A stretch of DNA of 64,000 nucleotides, taken from contig JAWKQX010000006.1 of assembly GCA_041389925.1 (NCBI GenBank), positions 215,837 through 279,836 on the forward strand, written 5' to 3'. Both the position numbers and the translations under genes were made by a program. This stretch comes from Kofleriaceae bacterium. Lineage in GTDB: Bacteria > Myxococcota_A > Polyangia > Haliangiales > Haliangiaceae. This document shows, one piece after another, positions 18,018 through 23,743 of the stretch. The notes under the pieces are model-generated. The model had not been told where the DNA came from. It did no database searches and saw only the letters and a program-made list of their open reading frames with translations. Every line of letters begins with the position of its first letter. The first letter of the stretch is position 1.

Positions 18018-18848
18018 TCAGCGCTTGGCGAGCTTGATCCCCAGCCCGGCCGCATCGGCGGGGTTCTGGATAGTGTGCGGCCACAGCCACTTGCGCAGGC
18101 TCACCGTGGCGCGCAGGAACTCGGGATCCCAGGTCTCGACGATGGAGGGGTAGGCATCGATGAGCAGCGAGCCGCTGATCTCCTGCACCGCGAGCGCGCC
18201 GGCGGCGAGGGCGTCGGCGGCGGAGAGCTGGCTCGCCAGCTTGGGGCCAAGCAGGGTGACTGGGTAGAGCCGGCGGGCCTTGGTCCAGTAGTTCTCGAGG
18301 CGTAGATCGAAGGCGATACGGTCGTAGAATGGCTTAGGTTCCTCGTGAAGATTGCCACCACTGTGGATCTCGTGGAGCGCCTGATTGACGACAGGTGCGC
18401 GGAACACTCCGCCGAATAGCGATGTCGTCAGGCCACTCGCGGCATGCTCAAGGAGCGACCTCGCCGCTTGGCCAATCTTCTCGGCGGACCACGTCTGAGA
18501 TTCGCACGCAAAGCCAATGTATAGCGGAGCGGTCGAATGTCTCTGCGGGGCGACGTCGTTCCTCAACTGAACAGTCGCAGCGAACCGGACGTCTCGTGGA
18601 CTGCCGACGAGGAGGTTTAGGGTCTCAACCTTCTCGTCGCCTGCGGCGTCGTCGAAGGCCTTCCAGACCTGCTCTCTCCACTTGCCTTGCGTGAACGGCG
18701 ATCGAAACAGCGCCGCCTGGATATCCGTGGGAGAGATGCCAATCGAGGCGAAGAGGTTCTCGAGGCAACTTCGCAGCCCTTTCGGAGAGCTGATAGGTGA
18801 GCTCGCGAGATAGACGACGGCGCCAAGACTGGGGATCGATGGAAACAT
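18018..18848 (-). CDS. putative immunity protein, paralog A (276 aa)
   Basis: Paralogous to 19134-19976 and 20739-21578 over the full length. The C-terminal ~100 aa are near-identical (SDRWTKARRLYPVTLLGPKLASQLSAADALAAGALAVQE...IQNPADAAGLGIKLAKR). Sits directly downstream of an orphan toxin 3' fragment. Confidence 0.7.
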   Translation of the reverse strand: MFPSIPSLGAVVYLASSPISSPKGLRSCLENLFASIGISPTDIQAALFRSPFTQGKWREQVWKAFDDAAGDEKVETLNLLVGSPRDVRFAATVQLRNDVAPQRHSTAPLYIGFACESQTWSAEKIGQAARSLLEHAASGLTTSLFGGVFRAPVVNQALHEIHSGGNLHEEPKPFYDRIAFDLRLENYWTKARRLYPVTLLGPKLASQLSAADALAAGALAVQEISGSLLIDAYPSIVETWDPEFLRATVSLRKWLWPHTIQNPADAAGLGIKLAKR

Positions 18849-19127
18849 CTACTGCTCACAGGTATAACGCTGCGAACCGCGGTCGTGCCGGTCTTGAAGT
18901 TCCAGGAATCGCTCTTCTTGTCCTTGCTGAAGTCGACGCGGCAGTTTTGTTCTACGAGAATCTGAAACGCATGTCCTGCACACCATAGGCCCTGGCGAAC
19001 TGGATCGCCGGGTTGTTGTTGCCGCGCCAGTCGCCGTTCTTGGCCTTGATCCTGAGCAGGCGCTCGCGTTGCTTCTCGATCTCGGCGAGCACGGCGTTGG
19101 CGCCCGAAGGGACTGCACCGCCGCCAA
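18849..19127 (-). pseudogene. orphan toxin C-terminal fragment 1 (degraded, frameshifted)
   Basis: GANAVLAEIEKQRERLLRIKAKNGDWRGNNNPAIQFARAYGVQ (frame of ORF 18952-19206) matches residues ~565-608 of the 722-aa toxin. The terminal ...TCEQ matches the toxin end QYQCEQ, with an internal deletion between. Confidence 0.6.
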
Positions 19128-19133
19128 CAGAGC

Positions 19134-20722: not shown

Positions 20723-20738
20723 GAAGCTCCAGCCTCTC

Positions 20739-21578
20739 TCACCGCTTGGGCACCTTGACGCCGAGGCCGACCGCGTCGGCGGGGTTCTGGATGGTGTGGG
20801 GCCACAGCCACCGTCGCAGGTTTACGGTGGTGCGGAGGAACTCGGGATCCCAGGTCTCGACGATGGAAGGGTAGGCGTCGATCAGCAGCGAGCCGTTGAG
20901 CTCCTGGACCGCGAGGGCGCCGGCGGCGAGAGCGTCGGCGGCAGAGAGCTGGTTGGCGAGCTTGGGGCCGAGCAGGGTGATCGGGTAGAGCCGGCGGGCC
21001 TTGGTCCAGCGGTCGGAGGCATGCATTCGGTCAAACTGCAGGCGCTCCTTGAACTCCTTCGATTCGTGCTCGTAGCTGAATGGATAGTCGACTTCGCAGT
21101 CGGCCTGTACGAAACTCTCACCGCGAAAACATCCTCCGGACAGGATCTCTGCGCCTCTGGCGCAAACCTCGAATATCCGGTGAGCTGTGTCCGCGAGGCC
21201 AATGCTCGCACTCGCGCTGGACTCCAAGGAGAAGGAGAACTGGCGAGGCGCATCGGATCGGAGGCGTGGGTCGGGGTTGCAACGCAGCTCTAGCATGCCG
21301 TGGAATGAGACATCATCATCCTTCGATCCGATGCAAAGGTCGATGACCTCTACGAGCTCGTCGCCCACGGCCTCGTCGAACGCGCTCCACTTGAACTTGC
21401 GCCACTTGCTCTTCTTTCGAGGCGTCCTGTAGAGGCTCATCCTCATCAAGTCGACAGGAAGAGAGGTCTCGTCGAGGAGTGCTGACGCTGCCGCGTGCGC
21501 GACCTCCGCGTGTATTGCGGGGTTCTTCTCGAAGTACACGAAGACGCCGACGGTGGGCACGCTAGGGCGAGGGCTCAT
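20739..21578 (-). CDS. putative immunity protein, paralog C (279 aa), cognate to the intact toxin
   Basis: Its start overlaps the toxin stop (ATGA at 21575-21578). Paralogous to A and B. Confidence 0.7.
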   Translation of the reverse strand: MSPRPSVPTVGVFVYFEKNPAIHAEVAHAAASALLDETSLPVDLMRMSLYRTPRKKSKWRKFKWSAFDEAVGDELVEVIDLCIGSKDDDVSFHGMLELRCNPDPRLRSDAPRQFSFSLESSASASIGLADTAHRIFEVCARGAEILSGGCFRGESFVQADCEVDYPFSYEHESKEFKERLQFDRMHASDRWTKARRLYPITLLGPKLANQLSAADALAAGALAVQELNGSLLIDAYPSIVETWDPEFLRTTVNLRRWLWPHTIQNPADAVGLGVKVPKR

Positions 21579-23743
21579 TGTTCACACTGGTACTGTTGCT
21601 TGCACCGGTCATAGCTCTCTGTCCTGCTGTTGAAATATAGCTCATCGTCCTTCTTGTCTTTGCTGTAGTCCTTGCGGCAGTTGGTCTCGATGAGTGATTG
21701 GAGTGCATGGCCGCCTAGCTGAGAAGACGCATCCTCTCCGTTGCGCATCCGCTCCTGATGGTAGTTCCGAACGGCGGAGACATAGTCGCCGAGCTTGAGC
21801 CGACCTGCATATCCCGCAGGCTTGAACTCCAGCACCCAGCAGTCTTGCTTGCCCTTGACTAGCACGCAGTCCGGCCGGTCCTTGCTGAGCCCCGGATACC
21901 CTGAGACGTCGTACAGGTTGCAGCGGAACTCCTTGCCCTTGTCGTTGTGCGCCTGCACACCATAGGCCCTGGCGAACTGGATCGCCGGGTTGTCGTTGCC
22001 GCGCCAGTGGCCGTTCTTGGCCTTGAGCCTGAGCAGGCGCTCGCGTTGCTTCTCGATCTCGGCGAGCACGGCGTTGGCGCCGTCGCGGTACTTGGCCTTG
22101 GCGGCGAGCTTCTTGCCTGTTTCCACGAGCGCAGGGGCGCGCGCGAGGACGCCGTCGATCAGACGCGACTCGCGGTCGATGACCTCGGCGGTCTTCTGCT
22201 CGACGAGCGAGTCCTCGGGCTCCTCGTTGGGCTCGAACTCCACGCCGCACCAGGCGTCCCACAGCTGTTGCATGTCCTTGCAGTCGAGCACGTAGATGCC
22301 TCGGGCGTCGGCCTCCCAGGCGGCGCCCTCTTTCTGGTAGGTCGCGAGGTCGTTGGAGGCGACGCTGCCGAGGCTGCTCAGGAACGTGACGACCTCAGGG
22401 TGACCGACGCCCTTGGCGAGGGCGTCGCACGCGGCGTGGATGCGCTTGTCTTGCTCGTCTCGATAGTCGAGCAGGGCCTTGGCGGCGCGCTGGAGGTTGG
22501 CCTTGACCTGCCGCCAGCGATCGTCGCGCGGGTCGAAGGCGTTTGCCGTCGCGACCAGGCCCGCGTTGGTGGTGCGCTTCCCGTCGGCCCAGGCCAGCGA
22601 CTTGCGATAGTGGTCACCGTGCTTGGCCGCTAGCTCCGGGATGGTCACCAGCGCGTCCGGATCGCGCGCGGCCAGCGCCTGCTTCATTTGCTCGCGCAGC
22701 GCAGCTTCGTCGTTCCTGCACTTGCCCTCCGCTTCGTCCAGCTCGTGCTGCGTGTGCTTGAGCGCGCGCAGCGCCTGCGACGCCGGCTCGAACGCGCGGA
22801 TGTAGTCGGGCCAGGTCTCGGCGATCTGCTTGGCCTTCTTGTCCGCGCCCTTGACCGCCTCCACCTGGCGCACGAGGTAGTCCACCTCGGTCATCACGGT
22901 GCGGGCCTCGTCGATCTTGGCCGCCGAGCTGTCGCCGACGGAGTCGTTGATCAAGCTCTCGATGCGGCGGAACTTCTCGTCCAGCTTGACGTAGAGCTGG
23001 TCCTTGCCTTGCGCCGTGCTGGCTAGCTCGCGCAGCACGCGCTCGATCACCGGGTGCTGGTCGCGGCGGCGCAGGTCGCGGCACGCCGTCTCCGCCTGCG
23101 CGTAGTCGGCTTGCCAGGCGGCGAGCATGCCGGTGGCGGCGTATTGCACCCGACTGGAGACGTTGGACCACGCGTCCGAGGCCGAGAACTGCTGCGCGTA
23201 GCTGGCCCAGCTCTGCAGCTCGGCCTTCTTGCGATCCGCGGTGCTCCACCACTCTTCCGCCTTGCTGCCCACGTCGAGCGCGAGGCGGCGGAGCTCCTCG
23301 ATGCGCGCGCCGTCCTTGTCGCGCTCAAACGCGGTCGCTTGCTCCACCAGTGGCCGCTCCAGATCCTGGCAGCGCCGCGGGAGCTCGCTGACGCTGCGCT
23401 GGTCTGCCTTGAGCTGCACCAGGTACTGCGCAGCTCGATCGAAGTCGTCGCAGATGCGTGGGTAATACGAGACGTAGTTGTTCGCGGTCGAGTCGCCGCC
23501 CTTGACCCGCTCCAACGACGAGAGCCGCGCGCGCACCTCTCTCACCCGGCCGCGCGCGCTCTCGATATCGCTCGCGCTCGAGTCGTTGGCCACGCCGTCC
23601 AGATCGCTCGCGGCGTCGTTGAGCAGCCGCTGGATCTCGCTCACCAGCGCCTGTCGATCGGAGTCATCGTCCGCGTGTCCGCTGCGCATCGCGATCATCG
23701 CTGCGATGCCCGCTCCAACTGCGACCCAAGTCCTGCGCTTCAT
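21575..23743 (-). CDS. Sec-secreted polymorphic-toxin-like protein (722 aa): signal peptide, long alpha-helical region, C-terminal ~160-aa Cys-containing toxin domain that recurs as orphan fragments
   Basis: N-terminal MKRRTWVAVGAGIAAMIAMRSGHA signal. Two degraded C-terminal copies sit downstream, each followed by an immunity paralog. The gene is tightly coupled to paralog C. Confidence 0.7.
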   Translation of the reverse strand: MKRRTWVAVGAGIAAMIAMRSGHADDDSDRQALVSEIQRLLNDAASDLDGVANDSSASDIESARGRVREVRARLSSLERVKGGDSTANNYVSYYPRICDDFDRAAQYLVQLKADQRSVSELPRRCQDLERPLVEQATAFERDKDGARIEELRRLALDVGSKAEEWWSTADRKKAELQSWASYAQQFSASDAWSNVSSRVQYAATGMLAAWQADYAQAETACRDLRRRDQHPVIERVLRELASTAQGKDQLYVKLDEKFRRIESLINDSVGDSSAAKIDEARTVMTEVDYLVRQVEAVKGADKKAKQIAETWPDYIRAFEPASQALRALKHTQHELDEAEGKCRNDEAALREQMKQALAARDPDALVTIPELAAKHGDHYRKSLAWADGKRTTNAGLVATANAFDPRDDRWRQVKANLQRAAKALLDYRDEQDKRIHAACDALAKGVGHPEVVTFLSSLGSVASNDLATYQKEGAAWEADARGIYVLDCKDMQQLWDAWCGVEFEPNEEPEDSLVEQKTAEVIDRESRLIDGVLARAPALVETGKKLAAKAKYRDGANAVLAEIEKQRERLLRLKAKNGHWRGNDNPAIQFARAYGVQAHNDKGKEFRCNLYDVSGYPGLSKDRPDCVLVKGKQDCWVLEFKPAGYAGRLKLGDYVSAVRNYHQERMRNGEDASSQLGGHALQSLIETNCRKDYSKDKKDDELYFNSRTESYDRCKQQYQCEQ

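Follow-up and report, generated by a model that had tools for sequence, protein, structure and literature searches.

A 64,000-nucleotide stretch of contig JAWKQX010000006.1 from a Kofleriaceae metagenome-assembled genome (MAG), hereafter the window, carries on its minus strand a gene for a 722-aa signal-peptide protein, a translationally coupled 279-aa partner gene (imm1), and two further intact paralogs of that partner (imm2 and imm3), each preceded by a degraded piece of the 722-aa gene (Table 1). We consider it probable that this is a polymorphic toxin/immunity locus with a Sec-exported toxin, in which imm2 and imm3 were left from earlier units. The gene order and homology of these elements, the folds and motifs of their products, the co-variation among related loci and the recombination footprints were established computationally. 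A first-pass annotation had reported the coupled pair, the downstream paralogs and a toxin origin for the fragments, and all of these were recovered: the genes of the pair overlap at an ATGA, both paralogs are intact (49-54% identity overall, tblastn E 1e-67 to 1e-81), and the fragments are toxin-derived, BLAST E-values of 1e-20 to 1e-126 ruling out that the homology of the locus elements arose by chance.

The putative toxin and the putative immunity protein

The 722-aa protein is composed of a signal peptide (aa 1-24), two helical modules, M1 (~25-240) and M2 (~241-465), a conserved linker (~466-560), a predicted PD-(D/E)xK nuclease core (~561-660) and a tail (661-722). The signal peptide is predicted from a GHA|DDD boundary that comes after a basic n-region and a hydrophobic core of 15 residues, with an equivalent region in all homologs. 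Export by twin-arginine translocation (Tat) is unlikely because the RR contained in the KRR of the window protein is not conserved in homologs, which start e.g. with MKRW, MKRV, MTRGY or MTKL. A SitA-type lipoprotein was also rejected, as the first 30 residues of the toxin contain no Cys that could form a lipobox, and the same holds for every aligned homolog. The first-pass annotation had recognised no RHS, LXG or SitA-type delivery domain, in agreement with the Pfam and NCBIfam searches, in which PAAR, VgrG, Rhs/YD repeats, VENN and LXG were not found in the toxin, nor was any of them called beside homologs. Its view that a toxin with only a Sec signal is unusual has to be corrected: this class is already recognised as ‘T2SS’ (type II secretion system; PMC3482391), and the unannotated part of the protein is the helical module.

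Residues ~25-465 (window 22349-23671, minus strand) are a tandem duplication of a ~215-aa module. M1 and M2 share 26% identity (hhalign probability 99.7, E 3.6e-26), with two invariant Cys per copy. No Pfam model was found for the helical module, nor any PDB relative in a sequence-profile search with the full-length toxin. The best-conserved stretch of the whole protein lies in the linker (residues 481-510, LDCKDMQELWDAWC.VEFEPNE), and the linker is retained even in minimal 285-aa members of the family. The alignment of 19 full-length homologs showed 12 invariant Cys, six in the N-terminal and six in the C-terminal region, suggesting that the toxin may contain disulfide bonds.

In the same alignment, the invariant residues of the C-terminal region include G595xxxH599, Y611-D612, R623-P-D-C626, D625, E639-F-K-P642, Q682 and E686, while Y661, part of Y661xxE664 in the window toxin, is conserved in at least 90% of sequences. 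This series agrees with the Tox-REase-9 signature, given as ‘GxxxH, E, D, ELKP, YxxE’ (PMC3482391). The window toxin had no match to the corresponding model PF15650 (gathering threshold 27.3 bits) at E ≤1, and neither its C-terminal domain nor 17 close homologs matched it even at E ≤10; the assignment is made because relatives retrieved by the family profile, rather than the window toxin itself, match PF15650. The model was matched by 16 of the 59 scanned members of the wider family (best E 1.9e-10) and by nearly all of a sister branch of ~720-730-aa proteins. In one member (P0096) the PF15650 match (591-663) overlaps that of a hidden Markov model (HMM) of the window-locus nuclease core (575-660, E 1.8e-9), and two others (P0118 and P0163) combine a window-type tail with PF15650. 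From these motifs and profiles we conclude that the window C-terminal domain is, as far as sequence can tell, a divergent branch of the Tox-REase-9 lineage with PD-(D/E)xK motifs. Among 18 toxin members, a single one touched PF08774 (E 0.16). A sequence-profile search of the PDB with the C-terminal domain retrieved nothing, and Foldseek of its model against the PDB gave nothing significant.

The partner belongs to a family in which a variable N-domain (~190 aa) is followed by a C-domain (~90 aa) that is strongly conserved and bears the motif ARRLYPITLLGP...LWPHTIQNPAD. The 280-aa proteins were taken as cytoplasmic because they have no signal peptide. Structural modelling indicates a three-dimensional fold common to this family and to the TsiV/DUF3396 and Imm52 immunity proteins, the closest structural relatives being interbacterial immunity proteins of type VI secretion systems (T6SS). 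Among the proteins of this type, PA0821 is a DUF3396/TsiV-type immunity protein for VRR-Nuc (PD-(D/E)xK) T6SS effectors. The likeness was not seen at the level of profiles: Imm1-3 had no match to PF11876 or Imm52 (PF15579), one of 40 family members touched PF11876 (E 0.075) and none Imm52, and 7DRG and 9OZ0 were not found in a sequence-profile search of the PDB with the immunity family. For both the toxin and the immunity family, which the first-pass annotation had been unable to assign, a placement was reached through fold and profile, where the Pfam models gave none.

Orphan immunity genes and rearrangement of the locus

Both imm2 and imm3 are full-length and retain every family-invariant residue. 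Identity between N-domains was 37% for Imm1-Imm2 and 29-32% for Imm3 against Imm1 or Imm2, while relatives in other samples reached 61-66% (Imm2) and 63-69% (Imm3). Because the N-domains are less similar to each other than to relatives elsewhere (61-69% for each of the three), Imm1, Imm2 and Imm3 probably represent three old specificity types, and not recent local duplicates. The C-domains, on the other hand, are 87-95% identical, with synonymous divergence (dS) of 0.11-0.43 (0.11 for imm3 vs. imm2), whereas dS is saturated (>2) in the N-domains. Identity among the paralogs climbs sharply at codon ~180-190, the 3' 275 nt being 87-96% identical; the low C-domain dS against saturated N-domains therefore indicates that the 3' thirds were homogenised recently by gene conversion or recombination. 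The ratio of nonsynonymous to synonymous divergence (dN/dS) in the C-domain, 0.14-0.29, points to purifying selection.

As the first-pass annotation had proposed, a decayed copy of the toxin 3' region precedes each of the two paralogs; its extent for fragment A, 64 codons, is only the length of the open reading frame, and the homology covers ~71 codons. The frameshifts and the internal deletion it described in fragment B were both found, the deleted part (codons ~599-677) being the catalytic core of the toxin. Fragments A and B each keep the CEQ-stop end of the toxin, abutting or overlapping the next immunity start. The proposed displacement of toxin C-terminus/immunity cassettes fits fragment B alone, which agrees with the classical orphan picture in having kept a 98% identical, 130-nt homology arm, but has its core deleted and its frame shifted. 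The 5' end of fragment A, in turn, lies almost directly against a duplicated 208-nt segment that holds the ridA 3' end with its terminator-like hairpin and part of the toxin upstream region; fragment A is for this reason regarded as a copy of a whole ridA'-toxin-immunity unit that has lost its interior. Both orphan modules are without an intact nuclease. Three elements had been missed in the first pass, i.e. a fourth immunity 3' fragment, a remnant of IstB from an IS21 insertion sequence (IS), and the duplicated ridA 3' end and terminator (98% identical). The IS21 remnant sits exactly between the immunity 3' fragment and the duplicated ridA' segment, a position that points to IS-mediated rearrangement.

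Loss of the nuclease with retention of immunity was also observed elsewhere. Locus L016, from an independent sample (Logan SRR28338159), corresponds to window positions 24638..21952 joined to 19104..18231 (99.9-100% identical); the jump from toxin to fragment B lies inside the 130-nt repeat, and 2,847 bp comprising the nuclease core, imm1, fragment A and imm2 are gone. L016 may be a natural variant that arose by recombinational deletion or, since the crossover falls within 54 identical bases, a chimera of the assembly. A separate case is given by L006 (6466-8004) with L007 (1-903), where the toxin is devoid of residues ~521-694, i.e. the whole nuclease domain, while its final 28 residues are still present and the coupled immunity gene is intact. 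The same outcome thus arose independently in L006/L007 and, if not chimeric, L016. Tandem immunity genes also occur in L005, with two behind one toxin gene, and downstream of TseV1 and TseV2. Two further decayed toxin genes of the family were seen: in P0069 (JGI contig, 16.8 kb) a toxin fragment (~residues 516-531, QKTAEIIDKESRLIDG) is fused in frame to an Imm3-type protein at ~residue 85, and in P0003 a toxin homolog ends right after the EFKP motif. L006 adjoins a Cas3/Cas_GSU0053 CRISPR cluster.

The GC content of the window (~70%) dips to 0.59-0.65 over the toxin/immunity locus. The three 280-aa paralogs correspond to NCBI tags R3B48_24280, R3B48_24270 and R3B48_24260 (exact protein matches, Kofleriaceae MAG). 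The flanking genes for a Ser/Thr kinase, a predicted lipoprotein, a VF530 protein and an M14 carboxypeptidase (Table 1) do not recur beside homologous loci. Searches of the locus or the window for sigma-70-like promoters, tRNAs and Rfam families were negative.

Table 1. Features of the toxin/immunity locus, its flanks and the PASTA lipoprotein genes of homologous loci (positions refer to the window unless a locus is named).
Feature	Position	Strand	Description
Toxin gene	21575..23743	-	722 aa, ATG start, GGGAGG 7 nt 5' of ATG
imm1, cognate immunity gene	20739..21578	-	279 aa; own ATG overlaps toxin stop as ATGA
Immunity 3'-end fragment	20590..20724	-	Last 39 codons + 13-15 nt beyond; 99% nt identity to imm2 3' end; tblastn Imm2 242-280, 97% aa
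IstB/IS21 remnant	20370..20555	+	C-terminal ~45 aa only; PF01695 IstB_IS21 E 6.7e-11, profile positions 192-236/238
Duplicate of 24081..23874	20180..20387	-	ridA 3' end (37 codons), hairpin, 44 nt of toxin upstream region; 208 nt, 98% identical; tblastn RidA residues 163-199
Orphan toxin fragment A	19964..20168	-	~Toxin codons 652-722 + stop, in frame, 71% nt / 77% aa vs. resident toxin; without catalytic core
imm2, intact orphan immunity gene	19134..19976	-	280 aa, GTG start; putative second specificity type
Orphan toxin fragment B	18849..19104	-	Codons 555-598 (19104..18975, 98% nt), codons ~599-677 deleted, diverged tail 678-722 (18976..18849), two frameshifts, CEQ-TAG directly 5' of imm3 ATG
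imm3, intact orphan immunity gene	18018..18848	-	276 aa; putative third specificity type
ridA-family gene (upstream flank, outside the system)	23980..24384	-	PF01042 E 3.3e-25; 134-aa gene call on L016
Terminator-like hairpin 3' of ridA	23942..23918	-	Duplicated copy at 20248..20224
Ser/Thr kinase (flank)	14319-17135	-	zf-HC2 anti-sigma-like motif + TPR repeats
Predicted lipoprotein (flank)	16960-17847	-	295 aa, LPAC lipobox, no Pfam match, directly downstream of imm3
VF530 DNA-binding protein (flank)	24356-24619	-	
M14 carboxypeptidase (flank)	24731-26611	-	
PASTA lipoprotein (homologous loci)	L001 7292-7978; L003 7315-7959; L005 5372-6091; L006 5490-6263; L017 5262-5978; L018 356-1072		

Toxin ends and downstream genes across the family

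An exhaustive HMMER search retrieved a wider family of 334 cluster representatives (50% identity clusters) at E ≤0.001. All named sources were Myxococcota MAGs; the scan of genome contigs, in which the family appeared in only two species-representative genomes, gave little taxonomic information. The ~215-aa module occurred in zero to five copies across family members, with one to five copies before the toxin domains. Of the 59 members scanned, 15 carried Ntox16 (PF15523, best E 6.8e-14) in comparison with the 16 carrying Tox-REase-9.

The genes that follow these domains change with them. Behind each of the full-length window-type toxins examined there is a TsiV-like partner, and such a partner accompanies the window-type nuclease even in a minimal 285-aa toxin (L015, E 2.8e-56). 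Tox-REase-9 toxins with a variant tail are followed instead by an overlapping gene of ~309 aa without a Pfam match (L017 8199-9128; L018 3293-4222; L012 2437-2649), for which a relationship to the Imm family was rejected (hhalign probability 0.4), and which is a candidate for a further immunity family; a 160-aa gene follows it. Ntox16 members (54.9 and 49.9 bits against a 25-bit cutoff) precede an overlapping DUF6714 gene (L008 2929-3681; L009 6668-7159; PF20461 E 7.6e-22 and 4.4e-9), fused to a Cys_rich_CPCC domain in L008. No immunity protein was listed for Ntox16 by Zhang et al. 2012 (PMC3482391), and DUF6714 is a candidate for this role. Polymorphic toxin systems are defined by a common carrier with alternative toxin domains and co-varying downstream genes (PMC3482391), and the family is assigned to them because its scaffold bears three C-terminal ends, each with its own downstream gene.

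Within the window subfamily polymorphism is, judging from the alignments, allelic and not at the domain level. For the pair L001 and L010, identity falls from 87% in the toxin N-terminus to 70% in toxin residues 598-722 and to only 39% in the immunity N-domain. Toxin residues 598-677, and not the tail, track the immunity N-domain with a partial r of 0.43-0.50 (8 pairs, a small sample of non-independent comparisons), which weakly suggests that these two regions may vary together.

A lipoprotein with two PASTA domains (~214-257 aa; PF03793 E 1.2e-14 in L017) lies beside the toxin, usually upstream, in most loci with enough flank (Table 1), and may be an accessory component of the toxin system; it was not found by tblastn in the 64-kb window. 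In the lineage of L013 and L014 (GC 51-54%), the toxin start is overlapped by an upstream gene for a 508-aa secreted protein without a Pfam match.

Mechanism, alternatives and related systems

According to the mechanism that we propose, the toxin would leave the cell by its signal peptide via the Sec pathway, fold outside the cytoplasm, probably in a disulfide-bonded state, and be released or presented outside the producer. The helical modules and the linker would then bring it into related cells, where the presumed PD-(D/E)xK nuclease would exert its toxicity by cutting target-cell DNA, killing related bacteria. In the producer and its kin, neutralisation would be achieved by a cytoplasmic protein of the TsiV/Imm52 fold that would bind and block the nuclease. 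The genes imm2 and imm3 would be the remains of earlier toxin-immunity units with their nuclease parts deleted, presumably expressed and kept as protection against toxin variants of neighbouring strains. Recombination would have had as its substrates the conserved segments of the toxin and the 3' third of the immunity genes, which is highly conserved, and, with the involvement of the IS21 element, could have produced the present mosaic. A further proposal, about which we are doubtful, is that the ~215-aa modules (one to five copies, with one conserved Cys pair each) and the linker form a new self-contained delivery apparatus, bacteriocin-like or vesicle-borne, by which Sec-exported toxins of Myxococcota might reach the cytoplasm of competitors without T6SS, contact-dependent inhibition (CDI) or outer-membrane exchange, with the PASTA lipoprotein as an accessory that helps in release, in tethering or in protection within the periplasm.

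Myxococcota are predators, and a disulfide-rich, Sec-exported nuclease could act extracellularly and not inside competitors. In that case it would serve in predation, in nutrient scavenging or in the turnover of extracellular DNA, and be paired with an intracellular inhibitor as barnase is with barstar or NucA with NuiA; it would not enter competitors, and the 280-aa protein would only shield the producer from nuclease that has folded before export. Several observations fit such an enzyme and weigh against an interbacterial toxin: the signal peptide is the only export signal, the 12 invariant Cys are typical of extracellular enzymes, no recognisable delivery or import machinery was found in the toxin by Pfam and PDB profile searches, and a one-module 500-aa toxin matching PF15650 (L013 3475-6503; L014 185-3213) has no adjacent immunity gene. 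A predatory or scavenging nuclease would have no reason, however, to be accompanied by two extra intact inhibitors of other types beside dead toxin remnants, and the much faster divergence of the immunity N-domain with respect to the toxin (39% vs. 87%) would be left unexplained, as would the presence of Ntox16 with its own downstream gene on the same scaffold and a partner most closely related in structure to interbacterial T6SS immunity proteins. We regard it as unlikely.

The interbacterial toxin/immunity reading also has to reckon with the fact that no Pfam, NCBIfam or PADLOC model was reached by the four window proteins (toxin and Imm1-3), and with the 25 close homologs (46-81% identity), all of ~720 aa with the same C-terminal domain and roughly even conservation. 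The earlier designation of the locus as a polymorphic toxin system applies for this reason at the superfamily level, where Tox-REase-9 or Ntox16 occur on one scaffold, and not among these 25 homologs, which share one C-terminal domain. Moreover, no clear match was obtained between the orphan tails and the toxin alleles that accompany Imm2-like or Imm3-like proteins elsewhere, in a comparison that is undiscriminating because several tails, that of the resident toxin included, share 75-77% identity with fragment A; and the presumed expression of imm2 and imm3 has against it that a terminator-like hairpin precedes fragment A and that no promoter was detected. These last points lead to another view of the downstream modules, as neutral debris of tandem duplication and IS21-mediated rearrangement, in which imm2 and imm3 would be unexpressed relics that constitute no immunity repertoire. 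It accords with the internally deleted whole-unit copy of fragment A behind a hairpin and adjoining the IS21 remnant, with the frameshifted fragment B and with the existence of L016, which may be a variant without imm1 and imm2. Yet neutral decay is hard to reconcile with full-length imm2 and imm3 genes that show all invariant residues and C-domain constraint next to destroyed toxin remnants, with ancient and distinct N-domain types that have closer relatives in other samples, or with the preserved CEQ-stop/start junctions, and we hold it to be quite improbable. Least credible of all would be an intracellular toxin-antitoxin or anti-phage defence pair, and not an exported weapon: all homologs have the N-terminal hydrophobic signal and the 12 invariant Cys, there was no PADLOC match, the partner has a modelled T6SS immunity fold, and the scaffold carries polymorphic-toxin domains.

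Seen as a toxin/immunity system, the locus shares features with several known ones. In TseV/TsiV (Salmonella bongori TseV2/3-TsiV; P. aeruginosa PA0821, PDB 7DRG), VRR-Nuc effectors of the T6SS are paired with DUF3396 immunity proteins; the window locus has neither PAAR nor VgrG nor a T6SS context, its toxin is exported by a predicted signal peptide, and the nuclease motifs fit Tox-REase-9 and not VRR-Nuc. TseT/TsiT (Tox-REase-5 with Imm52, P. aeruginosa PA3907/PA3908), also delivered by the T6SS, differs in that the window proteins have no Pfam match to Imm52 or Tox-REase-5, and the Tox-REase-5 motifs FDG and EAK are absent from the nuclease. Like the nuclease colicins and S-type pyocins, the window toxin has a long helical N-terminal region, a C-terminal nuclease domain and a tightly linked immunity gene, and by this analogy a diffusible, contact-independent killing is plausible. 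Colicins, however, have no signal peptides, are released bound to their immunity protein via lysis proteins, and have immunity proteins of ~85-90 aa, and no sequence or profile similarity of the window toxin to colicins or pyocins was found.

The motif series GxxxH...D...E[LF]KP...YxxE is that of the Tox-REase-9 toxins (PF15650; Zhang et al. 2012), for which signal-peptide (‘T2SS’) delivery is among the listed modes (PMC3482391). The listings give Imm54 as immunity partner and RHS, HINT and LXG as carriers, and do not include Delta-proteobacteria/Myxococcota among the taxa (PMC3482391), whereas the window locus has a partner with a predicted TsiV/Imm52 fold, a helical module as carrier and a Myxococcota host. 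Strings of non-identical immunity paralogs behind a toxin are known from EsaD/EsaG and TelC/TipC of type VII secretion systems (T7SS), where it is through conserved blocks that the strings recombine, lose members and expand (Garrett et al. 2022, PMC9484751). The array behind the window nuclease resembles the esaG and tipC strings, with a homogenised 3' block; those belong to Gram-positive T7SS and involve unrelated proteins, and here only one conserved block, at the 3' end, is evident. SitA proteins are described (PMC5562445) as polymorphic myxobacterial lipoprotein toxins delivered by outer membrane exchange, with downstream immunity genes and a role in kin discrimination; the window toxin and its homologs differ from them in having no lipobox Cys and show no sequence relationship.

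Polymorphic toxin loci with orphan immunity genes are a well-known kind of system. What is new at this one is the helical carrier module, part of a sizeable scaffold (334 clusters) previously without annotation, the pairing of a putative Tox-REase-9-lineage nuclease with an immunity protein of predicted TsiV/Imm52 fold, the distribution of the family, with all named sources in Myxococcota, and two candidate immunity families (DUF6714 and the 309-aa proteins). The analysis gives likely functions, nuclease toxin and immunity protein, to two families of ‘hypothetical proteins’, and the locus shows how immunity repertoires grow and erode, since the conserved 3' blocks, the homology arm of 130 nt and the remnant of an IS can all be seen in it. 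If the proposed reading is true, these bacteria would possess a route of kin and competitor discrimination separate from SitA/outer-membrane exchange and from the T6SS.

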